Positions 6,324-48,843 of a stretch of DNA of 64,000 nucleotides are shown here, one piece after another. A model generated the notes under the pieces. The model saw nothing but the letters and a program-made list of their open reading frames with translations, was not told the DNA's origin and ran no database searches. This stretch comes from Candidatus Methanomethylophilaceae archaeon (GTDB taxonomy: Archaea > Thermoplasmatota > Thermoplasmata > Methanomassiliicoccales > Methanomethylophilaceae). The first letter of the stretch is position 1. Each line of letters opens with the position of its first letter. The stretch lies in the NCBI GenBank assembly GCA_944320495.1, contig CALUHR010000013.1, forward strand, positions 487,931 through 551,930, written 5' to 3'. The position numbers were made by a program, and so were the translations under genes.

Positions 6324-7613
6324 ATGATCACAGCCATCCGCAACGCCTGGATCGTCACCCAGGACGCCCAGCGCAGGGTCCTGAAGGGGGACGTCGTCAT
6401 AGACGGCGAGAGGATCGTCTCCGTGGGCCCGGCGTACGACGGCACCGCAGACAGGGAGATCGACGCCACCGGCGACATCGTGATGCCGGGGATGATCAAC
6501 ACCCACACCCACATCTCGATGTCCGTCATGAAGGGGGTCGTGGACGACCTGGCATTCCCGGACTTCCTGGACAGGACGTTCAAGATCGACTCCGACCGCA
6601 CCGACGACGACCTCGAGGTCGGCACCAAGCTCGGATGCATGGAGATGATGCGCGGTGGCACGACCACGTTCATGGACCTCTACTACTCGGAGGACGTCAT
6701 CGCGAAGGCCACGCAGGAAGCGGGCATCCGCGGAGTGCTCTGCTGGTGCGTCCTCGACGAGGACAAGACCACCCAGAAGGGCAACCCCCTGGACAACTGC
6801 CGCAGGTTCATCGAGACCCACAGGGGCAGGAGGAAGATCGTCCCCGGCGTGGGGCTCCAGGGCGTGTACGTTTGCGATGAGGACACCTGCGTCGGCGCGA
6901 AGGCCCTCTCGGACGAGATGCAGGCGCCCATGAACTTCCACCTGTCGGAGACGCAGGGCGAGGTCAACGAGCACAAGCGCAAGACCGGCCAGCGTCCCGC
7001 CGAGTGGCTGTCGGGCATCGGGGTCCTCGGACCCAGAGGCGTCGCGGCGCATTCCGCCTACCTCACCATGAGGGAGGTCAGGCTCATGGGCGAGGCAGGG
7101 ATGTCCATATCCAGCTGTCCCGCGTCCAACATGAAGCTCGCCACCTCCGGCCTCGCCCCCGTCCCGCAGTTCCAGCAGAGCGGGGTCAACGTGACCATCG
7201 GCACCGATGGGAGCACCACAAACAACACCCTCGACATGTTCGCCGAGATGAGGCTCCTGGGGCTCCTGCAGAAGTTCGGCAACTGGGACGCGACCGTCGC
7301 CCCCGCCCAGGATCTCCTGGACTTCGCCACCATCAACGGCGCGAAGGCGGTCGGCATGGCCGACTCCATCGGATCCATCGAGCCCGGCAAGTACGCCGAC
7401 CTTGTGATCCTGGACGGGAAGGCCCCCAACCTGAGGCCGCTGCTCCCCGAGAACATCATCGCCAACATAGTCTACTCCGGCAACAGCCTGAACGTGAAGA
7501 CCGTGATGTGCCAGGGCGACGTCGTCGTCGAGGACGGACGCATCACCACCCTGGACACCGAGGACGTCCTGGCCAGGTCCGAGGACGCCTGGCGCTACCT
7601 CTGCCTGAGATGA
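6324..7613 (+). CDS. Amidohydrolase, MTA/SAH (5'-deoxyadenosine) deaminase family
   Basis: PGMINTHTH, FHLSET, AAHS, CPASNMKLA, IGTDGSTTNNTLDMF, GSIEPGKYADLVI. ATG 6324. Confidence 0.85.
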   Translation: MITAIRNAWIVTQDAQRRVLKGDVVIDGERIVSVGPAYDGTADREIDATGDIVMPGMINTHTHISMSVMKGVVDDLAFPDFLDRTFKIDSDRTDDDLEVGTKLGCMEMMRGGTTTFMDLYYSEDVIAKATQEAGIRGVLCWCVLDEDKTTQKGNPLDNCRRFIETHRGRRKIVPGVGLQGVYVCDEDTCVGAKALSDEMQAPMNFHLSETQGEVNEHKRKTGQRPAEWLSGIGVLGPRGVAAHSAYLTMREVRLMGEAGMSISSCPASNMKLATSGLAPVPQFQQSGVNVTIGTDGSTTNNTLDMFAEMRLLGLLQKFGNWDATVAPAQDLLDFATINGAKAVGMADSIGSIEPGKYADLVILDGKAPNLRPLLPENIIANIVYSGNSLNVKTVMCQGDVVVEDGRITTLDTEDVLARSEDAWRYLCLR

Positions 7614-8434
7614 GAGCGGAGTTCGAGGTGCCGGACATACCGGCGATCAGGTCCGAGGGCCTGACGCCGGTGGACATGCACTACCACACCAGCTGCTCGG
7701 ACTCGGACACGGACCCCGTCGCCGCCCTCCGCCTGGCCGAGCGCATGGGCGTGGGGTTCGCGGTCACCGACCACAACCTGATCCAGTCGGTGCTGAGGCT
7801 GAAGGAGGTACGCTCCTCCGTCCCCGTCGTCCCGGGGATGGAGGTCAGCACCACCGACGGCCCGCACATACTGGTCTACTTCCCCACCTCCAGGTCCCTG
7901 GAGAGGTTCTGGTACACGCGCATCCGCCCCCGCATCCAGGAGAACCCGTGGCTGGCCCTCAGGGACTGCACCACCGAGAGGCTCCTGGACATGTGCGAGA
8001 TGGAGGACTGCGTCGTCTCCGCCGCCCACCCCTCGGGATACTTCAACACCAACAAGGGCGTCGAGATCTGCATCCGCAAGGGCATCCTCATGCCGTCGGT
8101 GGCAAGGCGTCTCGACGCATACGAGGTGATCTCCGGGGGAATGACCCGCGAGTCCAACGAGAACTCCATAGCCGCCGCCAAGGAGTACGGGCTGGGGTTC
8201 ACAGGGGGCACCGACTCCCACGTCCTCAACGGCCTCGGAGGCGTCGTCACCGTGTGCCAGTCGTCCACCGTGGAGGGGATCCTGGAGGACGTGAGGCACC
8301 ATCGGGTGGACGTGATCGGACAGGAGAAGAACATCCGCGAGAAGGTCGTCACCGGCTCCGCCTCCGCCATGAAGTTCGCCCTCCACGTGCCCTCGACCGT
8401 ATCGGTGAAGGCTCGCGGGATGGTCCGGAGACGA
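7610..8434 (+). CDS. PHP-domain metal-dependent phosphoesterase
   Basis: ATGA overlap with the deaminase; DMHYHT, AVTDHN, AAHP, GGTDSH motifs. In-frame CGA at 8432-8434 abuts the convergent stop; the canonical ORF would run to 9940. Confidence 0.8.
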
Positions 8435-10240
8435 TCACTGGTCGTCTTCCTGCTCCTGCTCCGCCATCTCGGCCCTTGTCTGGCGGCGCTTCCTCACGTA
8501 AAGGACGAGTATCGCCAGCGCGGCCACCGCTATGATCGCCGCATAGTACCACAGCTCCACCTCGACGGCGTTGGGGACGATCAGGATTATCAGGAAGTCG
8601 ATCAGCACGATCAGGAGGTACGTGTTGATGTCCAGGAAGTTCAGGAACCTCTCGTATATGGCGACGGGGTTCGAGTCGCGCCCCTCCCTGTTGGCGATGC
8701 GCTTGGCCCCGCCGATGATGATCTCGTCCAGGAACTTCACGTTGTTGATCATGTAGTACGTGGGGATCGTCAGGAACAGGAAGTTCATGCCGAGGATCAT
8801 CAGGACCCATCCGGTCTGATTCCATCCGAAGGACTCCAGCAGCCATTCGCTCAGCGGAGGCGTGAGGAAGTAGAAGGCGATCTCTATCGCCGCGATGACC
8901 AGGATGTTGATGTACGCATGGGTCATGCTGCGGTAGACGGCCTTCTGGGACTTCTTCGAGGACGCGGAGAGGCGGTCGTAGGTCCTGGACCTGGCGTCGT
9001 TGAGCGAGCAGCATGCCGCGTAGATGGGGCGGGGGCACTTGGACACGACCCCGTCCCAGATGCTCCCCGCATAGCGCGACACGATCGGGAGGGTTATCAT
9101 CGAGAGCAGGGCCGCGCCGATGACCGAGGTGTAGAACCCGTCGTCTATGACCCCGTCAGCCAGCGCCTCGGCGGCGATGATGAACGCGAACTCCCCCATG
9201 GCGCAGAGGTTGATCGCCGAAAGGAACCCGTTCCTGCAGGTCTCGTTCCCGATCCAGTACGCCAGGAACCCGTTGCAGGTCATCAGGACGAAGTAGATGA
9301 CGAAGAAGATCAGGATGGTGCCGATGTTGTCCACCAGGATGGACGCTGGATAGACCTCCGCACCTATGCTGATGAAGAACACGGCCATGAACAGGTCCCT
9401 CATGGGGCCGATCTTGCTGTTCACGTCCTTGGCCTTCCTGCTGCTGGCCACCATCATGCCCATCAGGAACGCTCCGATGGCCATGGACAGGCCGGCGTAT
9501 GTGGCCAGCAGGGCCATGAGGAACGCCAGTCCGACGGATGCGACCGTGAGGATCTCGTCGGACACGTTGTCGGAGATCCAGTTGATGATCCTCGGCACGA
9601 CCCTCAGGCCCACGACGATGCTGATGACCATGAACACGAGGATCTTGACGATCAGGACGATGATCTCGTTGATGTCCATCCCGCCCATCTCCCCGGCGGA
9701 GTAGTTCGCCATCAGCGGCGTGATCATGGAAAGGATGATGACCTGGCCGATGTCCTCCATGATGGCGACGAGGATGAGCATGTCCACGTGGTCGCGGTCG
9801 AGCTTGTTCTGCGTCTTCAGCACGGCGAGCAGCACGGCGGACGAGGATCCGGAGATTATGGCGCCCAGCACGAGGGACTGGGTCATGTCGTAGCCGAGGA
9901 GCGTCCCGGCCACGAATCCCCCTGTGAGCATGAGGGGTAGCAGGATGACCACCACGAGGATGGCGAAGGACCCCTGCTTGCGGATCTTCTTGATGTTGAT
10001 CTCCAGCCCTATGCAGAACATCAGCAGGACCAGTCCGAAGTCCTTCAGGAAGGAGATGATCTCCTCTTCGGCGAGGATCGTCCCCTTGTCCTGGAAGAGG
10101 AACATGACGTTGACCAGGACGATGCCCGCGATGATGTATCCGATGAGCGGGGGCAGCTTGAACTTGTTGAAGACGATGGAACAGACCGCGGCGAGCAGCG
10201 AGAACAGCGCCAGCGCCGTCAGCATCACCGTCTCTTCCAT
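8435..10240 (-). CDS. CPA2 family cation:proton antiporter (KefB-like)
   Basis: About 13 TM segments; GLVLLMFCIGLEIN, SSSAVLL, ILVAIMEDI, GAFLMG, RDLFMAVFFISIG motifs; extra C-terminal TM domain. Confidence 0.85.
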   Translation of the reverse strand: MEETVMLTALALFSLLAAVCSIVFNKFKLPPLIGYIIAGIVLVNVMFLFQDKGTILAEEEIISFLKDFGLVLLMFCIGLEINIKKIRKQGSFAILVVVILLPLMLTGGFVAGTLLGYDMTQSLVLGAIISGSSSAVLLAVLKTQNKLDRDHVDMLILVAIMEDIGQVIILSMITPLMANYSAGEMGGMDINEIIVLIVKILVFMVISIVVGLRVVPRIINWISDNVSDEILTVASVGLAFLMALLATYAGLSMAIGAFLMGMMVASSRKAKDVNSKIGPMRDLFMAVFFISIGAEVYPASILVDNIGTILIFFVIYFVLMTCNGFLAYWIGNETCRNGFLSAINLCAMGEFAFIIAAEALADGVIDDGFYTSVIGAALLSMITLPIVSRYAGSIWDGVVSKCPRPIYAACCSLNDARSRTYDRLSASSKKSQKAVYRSMTHAYINILVIAAIEIAFYFLTPPLSEWLLESFGWNQTGWVLMILGMNFLFLTIPTYYMINNVKFLDEIIIGGAKRIANREGRDSNPVAIYERFLNFLDINTYLLIVLIDFLIILIVPNAVEVELWYYAAIIAVAALAILVLYVRKRRQTRAEMAEQEQEDDQ

Positions 10241-15770: not shown

Positions 15771-16348
15771 TCGCCGTCACGTCCCGCTCGCTGTGCGGGG
15801 AGCCGTTCCTGACGAGGGTCGCCAGGCTGGCCGAGGCCCGTCCGGAGATGATCATCCTGAGGGAGAAGGACCTCACGGAGGGCGAGTACCTGGCACTGGC
15901 GGCTGGATGCAAGCGCATCTGCGACCCTCTAGGCGTGCCTCTGGTCGTCAACCACTTCGTGTGGGTGGCCGGCATGCTGGGGATCAGAAGGATCCACCTG
16001 CCGATGCCGGACCTCCGCGAGGAGGACGTGTCGGGGTTCGACCTCGTGGGCGCGTCCGTGCACTCCGTGGAGGAGGCCAGGGAGGCCGTGTCGCTCGGGG
16101 CGGATTATCTCATAGCGGGGCACGTTTTCGGAACCGCCTGCAAGCCTACCGAGCCGAGGGGGCTCGGATTTCTTCGCGACGTCTGCTCGGCCGTGGACGT
16201 CCCCGTGTACGCCATCGGGGGCGTGGGCCCCGACAACTACCGGAGCGTCCTCGAGGCCGGTGCGCACGGCGCCGCGGTGATGTCGTCGGCCATGACCTGC
16301 GACGATCCCGAGGCTCTCGTTGACGCGATGCCCTCTCGCAAAGGTCGA
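15767..16348 (+). CDS. thiE: Thiamine phosphate synthase ThiE/TenI-like
   Basis: IILREKDL, IHLP, GASVHSVEEA, GADYLIAGHVFGTACK, VYAIGGV. In-frame CGA at 16346-16348; canonical TGA at 16366. Confidence 0.8.
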
Positions 16349-16372
16349 TATCCCCCGAGCCGTTGACCCCGC

Positions 16373-17008
16373 ATGGACGAGGCGACCTTCGACCGCGCCA
16401 AGGCATTCATCCGCGACCTCTTCGAGGGCGACAGCGGCGGTCACGACTACTGGCATTCGATTCGCGTCCACGACCTCGCCGTCTCCATCTGCGGCAGGGA
16501 GGGAGGCGACATGGACGTCGTCCGTCTGGCGGCGCTCCTGCACGATGCGGACGACCGCAAGCTCTTCGGACAGGGGAGCCGCAACGCCAGGGGATTCATG
16601 GACTCCGAGGGCATACCCTCAGACGTCCAGGACGAGGTCGTGGAGATCATATCGAAGATATCGTTCAAGGGAGCCGACACCGAGGTGCCCGCATCGCTGG
16701 AGGGGAGGATAGTCCAGGACGCCGACAGGCTGGACGCCATAGGTGCCGTCGGCATAGCCAGGGCCTTCGCCTACGGCGGGAGCAGGGGCCGTCCGATGCA
16801 CGATCCGGAGGTCCCGCCGTGCGAGGGCATGGGCGAGGCCGCCTACTTCGCCAATCGCGGGACGACGGTCAACCACTTCCACGAGAAGCTGCTCCTGCTG
16901 AAGGACATGATGAACACCCCGACCGCCCGCGCCATGGCGGAGTCCCGCCACCGCTACATGGAGGGCTTCCTGGAGGAGTTCCTGGACGAGTGGGAGGGCC
17001 GCAGGCGA
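16373..17008 (+). CDS. HD-domain phosphohydrolase (YedJ-like)
   Basis: GHDYWHSIRV, LAALLHDADD, VQDADRLDAIGAVGIARAFAYGG, HFHEKLL, FLDEWEG. CGA at 17006-17008 gives 211 aa; canonical stop at 17305. Confidence 0.85.
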
Positions 17009-17668
17009 TCGCAGGAGCTCGAACCGGTTCTTGGAGAACTTCAGGACGCCGTCGGCCTGCATCCTTCCGAGCTCGGCCGACAGGGCGCTCCTGTCCACGC
17101 CCAGGTGGTCGGCCATCTGCTGCCTGTTCAGCGGTATGGAGAACTCGTTGCTCCCCGCGATCCTGGCCTGGTCGGACAGATAGGCGCACACCTTCTCGCG
17201 GATGCTCCGCTTCGACATCTGCCCCAGCCTCCTGTCGCGCTCCACGGTGCTGCGGGCGAGGGCCTGGACCAGATTTCTGACGACTCTCGAATGGAACTGG
17301 CATGATGACGGGCAGGTCGTCGTCACCCTGGAGATCTCGAAGAACATGATCTCGGACCGATCGCTGGTGACGAAGCTCGTGTCCGCCCGCTCGCCCATCG
17401 AGCACGCGTACTCTGCGAAGATCACATCGCCCGGTCCGTGAGAGGAGACCAGGGTCCTGTTCCCCCACCAATCCTGTTTTATGACGTCGACGCGGCCGTC
17501 GAGGACGACACCCAGGCAGTCGACGGGGTCCCCGCTGCGAAGCACGAACTCCCCCTTGGGATACTTCTCCCTGCGGGCGTTCAGGCATTCGCACATCGCT
17601 GTAATCTCATCATCAGACGTCCCCAGGAAGATCCCGGTGTTCCTGAGGATGGGGATTGGGCTTCTCAT
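17009..17668 (-). CDS. Crp/Fnr family transcriptional regulator (HcpR-like by context)
   Basis: cNMP-binding fold, then SIREKVCAYL...LNRQQMADHLGVDRSALSAELGRMQADG...NRFELL HTH. CGA at 17011-17009 gives 219 aa; canonical stop at 16619. Confidence 0.88.
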
Positions 17669-17673
17669 AGAAT

Positions 17674-17689
17674 CGTTGTGATAACAACG
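17674..17689. promoter_or_regulatory. Palindrome CGTTGT-N4-ACAACG, candidate operator of the Crp/Fnr regulator
   Basis: Perfect 6-bp inverted repeat between the divergent crp and hcp genes, just upstream of the hcp TATA (TTTATAT at about 17698). Confidence 0.55.
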
Positions 17690-17745
17690 TTTCCGATTTA
17701 TATCCTACGTAACCTCGATCGACCGAAGAACAGAGGTGACTCGAA

Positions 17746-19275
17746 ATGTCGGAAGAGATGTTCTGCTATCAGTGCGAGCAGACCGCCGGAGGCCGCGCAT
17801 GCGTGGGCAGGTCAGGGGTCTGCGGCAAGACCTCCGAGGTGGCCATGCTCCAGGACGAGCTCACGGGCGCCCTCGTGGGCCTCGCCGATACCGTGGAAAC
17901 CCCCACGCCCGGAATCGACTCCCTCGTCAGGAGGGCGCTCTTCGCCACCCTGACCAACGTGGACTTTGATGCCGACAGCATCAGGGCTCTGACGGACGGG
18001 GTCAGGAAGGCGTCCGGAGGGGAGGGCGAGATACAGATGTCGTCGGTCTGGTGCGCCCAGGAGGACGTTCGCTCGCTGAAGTCCCTGATCCTGTTCGGGG
18101 TCCGTGGCATGGCGGCCTACGCGTACCACGCCGAGGTCCTGGGCGAGACCGACCCCGAGGTCGATTCGATGATGTACGAGGCCCTCCGCGCCGTGGGGTC
18201 GGACATGGGCGCCGACGGTCTCCTTGACGTCGCCCTGAGGCTGGGGAAGGCGAATCTCGCCTGCATGGCGATGCTGGACTGTGCGAACACCGCCAGATTC
18301 GGCATGCCCTCCCCTGCCACCGTATCCCGCGACGTGGCCGCCGGACCTGCGATCATCGTCACCGGGCACGACCTGGAGGACCTCCGTTTGATCCTCGAGC
18401 AGACCGAGGGCAAGGGGATCAACGTCTACACCCACGGGGAGATGCTCCCGGCCTTCGGATATCCCGAGCTCAGGAAGTACACACATCTGAAGGGCAACTT
18501 CGGAACAGCCTGGCAGAACCAGAGGGACGAGTTCGACGGGGTCCCCGCGGCTATCGTGTACACGACAAACTGCCTCATGCCGCCCAAGGATTCGTACAGG
18601 GACAGGGTGTTCACCACCGGACCCGTGGCCTTCCCAGGAACGGTCCACATCGGGGACGGTAAGGACTTCGCGCCCGTCATCGAGAAGGCCCTGGAGTTGG
18701 GAGGCTTCGCCGAGCCCACGAGCACCGGAGCGACGCTCACTACCGGGTTCGGACACGGGTTCGTGCTCTCCGTCGCCGACAAGGTCGTCGAGGCCGTCAA
18801 GTCGGGCCAGATCAACCACTTCTTCCTCGTGGGCGGATGCGACGGCGCCAAGCCCGGACGCGGATACTTCAGGGAGTTCGTCGAGAAGACCCCGGAGGAT
18901 TCGGTCGTCCTCACGCTGGCCTGTGGGAAGTACAGGTTCAACGACCTGGACCTGGGGACGGTCGCCGGACTCCCCCGTCTCATGGACATGGGCCAGTGCA
19001 ACGATGCCTACGGAGCGGTGCAGGTGGCCGTGGCGCTGGCCGACGCGTTCGGATGCGGGGTCAACGACCTGCCCCTGTCGATGGTCATCTCGTGGTACGA
19101 GCAGAAGGCGGTGTGCATCCTCCTGACGCTGCTCCATCTGGGGATCAGGGGCATATACCTCGGACCATCGCTCCCGGCGTTCGTGTCCCCTGCCGTGCTC
19201 GACATCCTGGTACGGGAGTTCGACGTCCACGCCATCTCGGACGTCGATTCCGACATGGCCGCGATGCTCCGCTGA
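17746..19275 (+). CDS. hcp: Hydroxylamine reductase / hybrid cluster protein
   Basis: MFCYQCEQTA..C...GVCGK, TGHDL, YTHGEMLP, GTAWQNQ, TTNC, GGCDG, LDMGQCNDAY-like, SWYEQKAV. RBS GAGGTGA. Confidence 0.95.
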   Translation: MSEEMFCYQCEQTAGGRACVGRSGVCGKTSEVAMLQDELTGALVGLADTVETPTPGIDSLVRRALFATLTNVDFDADSIRALTDGVRKASGGEGEIQMSSVWCAQEDVRSLKSLILFGVRGMAAYAYHAEVLGETDPEVDSMMYEALRAVGSDMGADGLLDVALRLGKANLACMAMLDCANTARFGMPSPATVSRDVAAGPAIIVTGHDLEDLRLILEQTEGKGINVYTHGEMLPAFGYPELRKYTHLKGNFGTAWQNQRDEFDGVPAAIVYTTNCLMPPKDSYRDRVFTTGPVAFPGTVHIGDGKDFAPVIEKALELGGFAEPTSTGATLTTGFGHGFVLSVADKVVEAVKSGQINHFFLVGGCDGAKPGRGYFREFVEKTPEDSVVLTLACGKYRFNDLDLGTVAGLPRLMDMGQCNDAYGAVQVAVALADAFGCGVNDLPLSMVISWYEQKAVCILLTLLHLGIRGIYLGPSLPAFVSPAVLDILVREFDVHAISDVDSDMAAMLR

Positions 19276-48510: not shown

Positions 48511-48558
48511 CCGTGTGGCGAGGCAGGTTTCCAATACACGTTGTATCATGTGATATGG

Positions 48559-48843
48559 ATGAGGTTCGCATTCATCTTCATGAACACCGCCCTGCCGGGC
48601 ATCGAGAGGACCACCGTGAGAGGAGGCGACAGCGAGTTCGTAGGCGTCCGCTCGCTCGATGAGGCATGCTCCGTCGCATCATCCCTCGTCGGCGAGGGCG
48701 TCGGATGCATCGAGCTCTGCGGGGCGTTCGGGGAGGACGGTGCCAGGGCGGTGATGGAGGCCACGGGCAGGAGCGTCCCCGTCGGCTATGTGGTGCACCT
48801 GCCCGAGATGGACGACGTCTACGCCAGGACGTTCGGCGGCTAG
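48559..48843 (+). CDS. Small protein, DUF6506-like
   Basis: FAFIFM...VGV...EAC...GVGCIELCGAFG...VPVGYV. Ends TAG immediately followed by CGA. Confidence 0.65.
   Translation: MRFAFIFMNTALPGIERTTVRGGDSEFVGVRSLDEACSVASSLVGEGVGCIELCGAFGEDGARAVMEATGRSVPVGYVVHLPEMDDVYARTFGG

Follow-up and report, generated by a model that had tools for sequence, protein, structure and literature searches.

The convergent gene pair

The window analysed here is the whole stretch of 64,000 nucleotides at G000:C13:487931-551930, where G000 denotes the 1.77-Mb genome (14 contigs, 62% GC) of a Candidatus Methanomethylophilaceae archaeon. Two genes converge in it on a palindromic hexamer, and the features at this locus are as follows.

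16373-17008, plus strand: HD-domain phosphohydrolase gene, 211 codons followed by a putative CGA terminator at 17006-17008 (Pfam, NCBIfam, homologue ends)
17009-17668, minus strand: Crp/Fnr-family regulator gene, 219 codons followed by a putative CGA terminator at 17011-17009 (Pfam domains, orthologue ends)
17006-17011: palindrome CGATCG, read as two abutting CGA terminators, one per strand (sequence and the hexamers of relatives)
17674-17689: perfect inverted repeat CGTTGT-GATA-ACAACG between the divergently oriented Crp and presumed hcp genes (read from the sequence)
17697-17703: TATA-like TTTATAT in the same intergenic region (read from the sequence)
17746-19275, plus strand: 509-codon gene pointing away from the regulator, with TGA as its stop and without in-frame CGA (ORF)

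The plus-strand product matched the Pfam HD domain (PF01966) over residues 28-122 with 37.3 bits against a cut-off of 22, and its translation carries the H...HD metal motif (...WHSIRVHD... and ...LLHDADD...). An NCBIfam model for a PRK10119-like HD-type hydrolase aligned to residues 9-212, but the score required for the equivalog PRK10119 was not reached (76 vs 286 bits), so that the protein is a relative and not PRK10119 itself. The minus-strand product met the Crp/Fnr architecture, with cNMP_binding (PF00027, residues 34-112, 46.9 bits) and HTH_Crp_2 (PF13545, residues 158-219, 40 bits) both above their cut-offs, and one NCBIfam match in this ORF reaches residue 225. The inverted repeat and the TATA-like element are candidates for the operator of the regulator and for a promoter. 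The divergent 509-codon gene is presumably a hybrid-cluster protein gene (hcp), an assignment that I base solely on its N-terminal Cys-rich CxxC motif.

The gene that precedes the HD gene (15767 onwards) has a CGA at 16346-16348, six codons ahead of its TGA at 16364-16366, and either could be its real end.

An earlier note on this DNA had read the HD protein as ...EWEGRR-CGA and the regulator as ...NRFELL-CGA, back to back, and these readings were reproduced together with every number that it gave. The plus strand reads GAG TGG GAG GGC CGC AGG CGA with CGA at 17006-17008, the minus strand reads AAC CGG TTC GAG CTC CTG CGA with CGA at 17011-17009, and the gap between them is zero, which forms the palindrome CGATCG. 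When both frames are closed at CGA, the proteins have the claimed 211 and 219 aa. Under table 11, the plus-strand ORF from 16373 stays open up to a TGA at 17303-17305 (310 aa, 99 codons past CGA), the minus-strand ORF from 17668 stays open up to a stop at 16619-16621 (349 aa, 129 codons past CGA), and the two overlap in antisense over the 687 nt that the note had stated. Neither gene contains a further in-frame CGA. Back-up stops near CGA are absent for both genes, so leakiness would yield long tails encoded in antisense.

It has to be considered that CGA is still arginine here, in which case both genes would have lost their stops and would encode antisense-overlapping proteins of 310 and 349 aa. 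Both frames are open under table 11 and a tRNA-Arg(UCG) gene exists, as this account requires; against it, no family match was found in Pfam or NCBIfam for either extension past CGA, and the extensions differ wildly in length among relatives. The genome-wide evidence on this point is given below.

Ends of homologous genes

A comparison of both C-termini with their homologues had been proposed as a check; when it was run, homologue ends coincided with CGA on both sides, and no homologue with a conserved extension was found. For the HD protein, one genome per species was scanned (80 loci) and the codon after the last aligned residue was read in each. In Bacillus, Paenibacillus, Clostridia, Bacteroidales, Chloroflexi, Planctomycetes and archaea, the homologous proteins finish with ...EW(D/E)G.(R/K), and TAA, TAG or TGA comes immediately afterwards or a few codons later. 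Of the close archaeal relatives, which share 63-96% identity, 16 have TGA and 8 (L049, L050, L056, L061, L065, L067, L069 and L070) have CGA as the first terminator at this position or at most three codons from it. In the CGA-carrying relatives the next canonical stop lies between 2 and more than 100 codons further on, and the extension is never conserved. The close relatives ending in TGA are titled as MAGs of uncultured Methanomassiliicoccales or Candidatus Methanomethylophilaceae, with some in mis-binned 'bacterial' bins.

Several contigs with the archaeal HD gene (~70% identity; L050, L051, L054, L057 and L061) are filed under Prevotella, Firmicutes, Lachnospiraceae, Bacteroidaceae and Bifidobacteriaceae bins, which is probably a case of methanogen contigs being mis-binned.

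Orthologues of the regulator were found in 9 congeners and in 3 genomes of another family by searching 41 related genomes. Congener orthologues end at the same codon or at most three codons from it, with CGA or TGA: the end is ...LL-CGA in G000, G018 and G009, ...K-CGA in G014, G004 and G016, ...K-TGA at the identical codon in G006 and G002, and ...KTQ-CGA in G013. Orthologues in the other family have TGA or TAA a few codons later. I judge it very likely that the HD and Crp genes both end at CGA.

The hexamer at the junction

The zero-gap convergent HD/Crp arrangement was present in this window and in 8 relatives. Across these nine junctions the hexamer was CGATCG in four (this window, L049, L056 and L065), CGATCA in one (L069) and TGATCA in four (L058, L060, L062 and L081). 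CGATCG also occurs at the G009, G004 and G016 loci, which are possibly from the same species as some of the L-numbered sequences. In a maximum-likelihood tree of the concatenated proteins, CGATCG fell into two separately supported clades: one comprised this window, L049 and L056, while L065 was placed among sequences with TGATCA or CGATCA. The suggestion that CGATCG is the CGA version of an abutting TGATCA stop pair is thus borne out, as relatives carry all three forms. Their spread over species means that the T-to-C changes on the two strands were separate and occurred more than once, and that the intermediate survives. What had seemed puzzling, namely that both strands had changed, reduces to two ordinary point substitutions that would be silent if CGA equals TGA.

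The same data bear on the possibility of a sequencing or assembly artefact behind which the true sequence is TGATCA. A palindrome with GATC in it may be a site of methylation, and some base callers are misled at such sites, which gives this idea a certain basis. However, CGATCG recurs in independent assemblies of other species (at least four) and CGATCA in another, TGATCA is not depleted in the G000 genome (614 copies), and CGA ends are found in many other contexts. The earlier view that a single sequencing error could hardly account for the junction therefore holds, and an artefact is scarcely credible.

The junction is also not isolated within the genome. Genome-wide, 23 abutting convergent XGATCX pairs had coding signal on both sides (10 CGATCG, 12 mixed and 1 TGATCA), with CGA making up 32 of the 46 stops, a share that fits a preference for T after CGA described in the next section. 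Given these 23 pairs, the CGATCG junction exceeds chance. A second such pair lies in the window itself.

8432-8437: abutting convergent pair CGATCA; the plus-strand gene 7610-8434 ends in CGA and the minus-strand gene 10240-8435 ends in TGA

CGA across the genome

A codon model trained on the genome's own long ORFs was used to compare 40 strongly coding codons before a given codon with the next 40 codons after it. For in-frame CGA following a coding stretch, 81% of 141 instances were followed by non-coding sequence, while every other codon reached 14% at most, which makes CGA the sole outlier for a collapse of the coding signal. With CGA allowed as a fourth stop, the 1,153 high-scoring ORFs ended in TGA (867), CGA (241), TAA (33) or TAG (12). 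An independently seeded model applied to a 160-kb subsample of G000 gave 79 TGA ends, 30 CGA ends (30/109) and no internal CGA, and 16 of the 64 predicted genes in the window end in CGA. Four CGA ends in the window form a one-base CGATG stop/start overlap (11553, 34999, 37940 and 39258), as do many CGA ends genome-wide.

The context of CGA ends differed from that of TGA ends. T directly followed 141 of the 241 CGA ends vs 259 of the 867 TGA ends (Fisher p = 1e-15), and the base preceding CGA ends was rarely A or T. A canonical stop was present at most 10 codons downstream of 31.5% of CGA ends vs 22.7% of TGA ends (p = 0.007).

Only about four candidates for internal CGAs were detected in G000, one of which is in the gene for the release factor aRF1 (Arg78, see below). 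An in-frame CGA at C13 ~194143-194145 (minus strand) is flanked by strongly coding sequence before and after (...ERELFGS-CGA-AVFIDRDDT...), with no start codon following it; two domains may be fused here by read-through, or the start may be an unusual one. The candidates at C8 ~98213 and C5 ~178732 (plus strand) are weaker.

TAG is very rare as a gene end, both genome-wide (12/1,153) and in the window, where it closes one of 64 genes (48550-48843). No tRNA-Pyl was detected in G000 by ARAGORN, although congeners reportedly encode pyrrolysine (PMC4824259).

CGA among relatives

In an alignment of conserved genes (rpoB, rpoA1, rpoA2, L30e and NusA, about 2,800 codons), CGA was absent from each of the 13 congeners tested. 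Six genomes of sister families had 4-23 CGA codons in the same alignment, mostly aligned to Arg (in two genomes, only to Arg), and the low-GC reference genome G030 had one. Together with the collapse of the coding signal after CGA throughout G000, this absence speaks strongly against CGA still being arginine at the HD/Crp junction, and I consider that account highly improbable.

CGG, the other codon readable by tRNA-Arg(UCG), is likewise nearly missing from highly expressed genes of the genus: it occurs 0-1 times in the ~2,800 codons of congeners and 15-60 times in sister families of similar GC. The regions compared are the rpo clusters at loci L162-L173 and at G000:C13:151649-171649.

The highly expressed congener genes in this alignment avoid CGA ends and nearly all end in TGA, with one TAA exception, so that a census of gene ends in the RNA polymerase region is uninformative. 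Gene ends were instead counted with per-genome codon models, in samples of just 73-160 kb per genome. The first self-trained model was discarded since it called 178 'coding' CGAs in the G000 positive control, which the re-seeded model passed. CGA ends per scored ends were as follows.

G000: 30/109
G013: 9/71
G004: 5/74
G002: 2/44
G020: 0/32
G019: 2/55
G008 (CP115555, one of two strains cultured in PMC10804542): at most 2/81
G015 (CP013703, ISO4-G1, a cultured sheep-rumen strain): 1/49, the one being a CGATCA abutting pair

Internal CGAs numbered 0-2 in the census genomes and 28 in the outgroup G027. CGA is hence purged from gene interiors genus-wide, while its use as a terminator ranges from ~0-2% to 27% by species and is highest in the G000 species.

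The cognate tRNA

G000:C13:413317-413390 (outside the window): tRNA-Arg(UCG) gene; loci of relatives L130-L161

The cognate tRNA-Arg(UCG) is retained in the genus, and the absence of a decoding tRNA, which would be one criterion for a stop codon, is therefore not met. Finding these genes required a covariance model, as BLAST gave only the closest copies. In the main clade, positions 31-39 of the anticodon stem are unpaired (A.A, C.A or U.C) in 10/10 genomes, while the pairs 27-43, 28-42 and 29-41 covary; among the 45 tRNAs detected in G000, tRNA-Arg(UCG) is the only one with the 31-39 defect. In the ISO4-G1-type clade the same tRNA has a CCTCGAC loop, with C at the normally invariant U33, and a 27-43 mismatch. 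In four outgroup tRNA-Arg(UCG), the stem is a regular one of 5 bp and the loop reads CTTCG(A/G)A. The tRNA is under selection, and two different abnormalities of one tRNA in two clades suggest that this selection is for weak decoding of CGA.

An abnormal tRNA could also mean that CGA is effectively unassigned, such that ribosomes stall at it and a rescue pathway, with no specific recognition by a release factor, sets the peptide free. The ISO4-G1-type genomes, in which CGA is almost gone and CGA ends are few, would agree with this, as would the modest excess of back-up stops within 10 codons of CGA ends in G000. Yet a fifth of the genes would then have to rely on a slow route, including those at CGATG operon junctions that imply coupled re-initiation; hydrolysis of peptidyl-tRNA would still require an activity like that of a release factor; and the ease with which TGA and CGA replace each other at the ends of orthologues suggests that the two have nearly equal fitness. 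Stalling and rescue are consequently an improbable explanation for the CGA ends.

The release factor

G000:C2:85942-87135, minus strand (outside the window): aRF1 gene

A single CGA stands in frame in the aRF1 gene of G000, at Arg78 (numbered with Met as 1; alignment position 77). This site is CGA in 20/21 congeners, in the context (G/T)CT-CGA-CTN, while neighbouring synonymous sites are variable. All 14 outgroup aRF1s examined have Arg at the site, encoded by AGG, AGA, CGC, CGG or CGT and never by CGA (aRF1 loci L013, L025-L048). The frame is continuous across CGA, without a +1 frameshift. With CGA at a conserved Arg of the release factor, the codon must still be readable as arginine and is thus not a clean stop; its context here, T-CGA-C, is the opposite of that at gene ends.

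In G005, an assembly with 8% contamination, the aRF1 site is Lys and a CGA is found instead at codon 24 of the alignment (25 with Met counted as 1).

No aRF1 substitution that would explain the acceptance of C at codon position 1 was found: there are nine fixed differences between the genus and the outgroups, and none could be tied to recognition of the first base. The genus-specific changes include A in place of S before NIKS and M in place of R/Q four residues beyond it, for which I know of no effect. The aligned aRF1s read YRCDS.F, with Arg at the presumed equivalent of L123 in yeast eRF1, a residue that I take, by motif and numbering, to be the x of YxCxxxF. Since YRCDS.F is common to the outgroups, it may represent a predisposition but not the cause. 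Yeast eRF1 measurably releases at CGA against tRNA-Arg, and does so more with the UGA-biased variants L123R/F/Y (PMC7379694).

The gene for arginyl-tRNA synthetase, argS, directly follows aRF1 (at most ~20 nt apart, in some cases overlapping) in 20/20 genomes checked, 5 of them congeners and 15 from other families (aRF1/argS loci L013-L043, L202 and L204). This adjacency was considered as a signature of the CGA trait and was rejected as it is order-wide; the pairing is ancestral and not specific to the trait.

The conserved CGA in aRF1 is also of relevance for another explanation, namely that a true UGA arises from CGA by C-to-U editing of the mRNA, with the code and aRF1 remaining unchanged. 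CGA where relatives have TGA is exactly the pattern that editing would leave in DNA, and the strong T bias after CGA could be the context of an editing site. Nevertheless, editing would leave unexplained both the two lineage-specific kinds of defect in tRNA-Arg(UCG) and the purge of CGA from gene interiors, which extends to congeners with hardly any CGA ends, and the CGA at the essential Arg of aRF1 would have to escape it. Archaea are not known to have a C-to-U editing system for mRNA, and I regard editing as unlikely to be responsible, though DNA by itself does not rule it out.

Discussion

CGA meets three of the criteria by which a stop codon can be recognised from sequence: it stands where homologues end, it swaps with canonical stops, and it is missing inside conserved genes. 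That the peptide is actually freed at CGA by a release factor is an inference. The explanation that I favour is that the HD and Crp genes both end at the CGATCG palindrome and that CGA is a termination signal equal to TGA in this genus, with aRF1 as the reader. I put the probability of this explanation as a whole at about 80%, bearing in mind that termination is inferred from DNA only and that there are no protein, ribosome or RNA data.

According to this explanation, CGA would no longer be an ordinary arginine codon in the lineage concerned, the genus of Methanomethylophilaceae (Methanomassiliicoccales) that holds ISO4-G1. The ancestral junction would have been a zero-gap TGATCA stop pair in which each strand later underwent a T-to-C change, giving first CGATCA and then CGATCG; with CGA and TGA equivalent in meaning here, neither change would have had an effect. 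The single release factor aRF1 is proposed to recognise CGA in competition with the retained but weakened tRNA-Arg(UCG), with U as the next base favouring termination. Where the context is unfavourable, as at the invariant CGA-C in the aRF1 gene, CGA would be read through as Arg, and this could sense the activity of the release factor. The mechanism in which aRF1 competes with a weak tRNA is itself inferred and not shown, and taken alone it is somewhat more probable than improbable.

A further-reaching version would make CGA a context-dependent, leaky fourth stop codon, read by aRF1 before U and by the weakened tRNA at the CGA-C of the aRF1 gene, which would act as a feedback sensor of termination capacity. 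CGA would have vanished from genes first, as in ISO4-G1-type genomes, and would then have spread as a stop under GC pressure, to 27% of ends in the G000 species, so that a codon capture would be in progress. Whether all of this applies I consider evenly balanced.

Sense-to-stop codes are known from organelles (NCBI tables 2, 22 and 23), with AGA/AGG in vertebrate mitochondria, UCA in Scenedesmus mitochondria and UUA in thraustochytrid mitochondria. As in these codes, a standard amino-acid codon is found here at gene ends and is missing inside genes. Organelle codes, however, belong to tiny genomes that hold very few genes and a reduced set of tRNAs, whereas G000 is not organellar and has the full tRNA and RNA polymerase set of an archaeal genome: a 1.8-Mb free-living archaeon has ~240 affected genes, keeps the cognate tRNA and still has Arg at one conserved site. 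CGA has not been established as a fourth stop codon for any free-living organism, and literature searches found no published account of CGA as a stop in Methanomassiliicoccales.

Bacterial RF2 (prfB) is autoregulated through an in-frame UGA, past which translation continues by +1 frameshift. The aRF1 gene is similar in that it carries its own proposed target codon at a conserved early position (CGA at Arg78, 20/21 congeners), but there is no frameshift, continuation would be plain read-through by tRNA-Arg, and the regulation is without experimental support.

The nearest reports on CGA itself differ in several respects. In two Njordarchaeales MAGs, CGA is absent from recognisable domains and a role as a stop was raised as a possibility (bioRxiv 10.64898/2026.04.02.715157). 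Those archaea belong to a different phylum, have ~50% GC and CGG reassigned to Trp, no tRNA(UCG) was found in them and no gene-end evidence was shown, while the present genus retains tRNA(UCG) and offers direct evidence at gene ends. With yeast eRF1, release at CGA happens at a low level, as a side reaction on a rarely used codon (Wada and Ito, 2018; PMC7379694), whereas here it would be the normal end for a fifth of the genes. Bacterial reassignments of arginine codons include CGA/CGG to Trp, CGG to Gln and AGG to Met (Shulgina and Eddy, 2021; PMC8629427), and here too an arginine codon of the CGN/AGR boxes would have changed meaning after becoming rare; the bacterial changes are sense-to-sense and in low-GC genomes, while the change proposed here is sense-to-stop at 62% GC.

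Should the explanation hold, the genus would provide the first case outside organelles in which a sense codon became a stop. A practical consequence is that predictions by standard gene callers are fused or too long for about one in five genes of these widespread gut methanogens, as the 310-aa and 349-aa ORFs at the HD/Crp junction illustrate. The genus holds cultured strains (ISO4-G1; CP115555, PMC10804542), so the claim is directly testable. It has a bearing on first-base discrimination at stop codons by the eRF1/aRF1 family of release factors, and as different stages are present within one genus, the order in which the codon was lost, its tRNA weakened and CGA spread as a stop is open to study.
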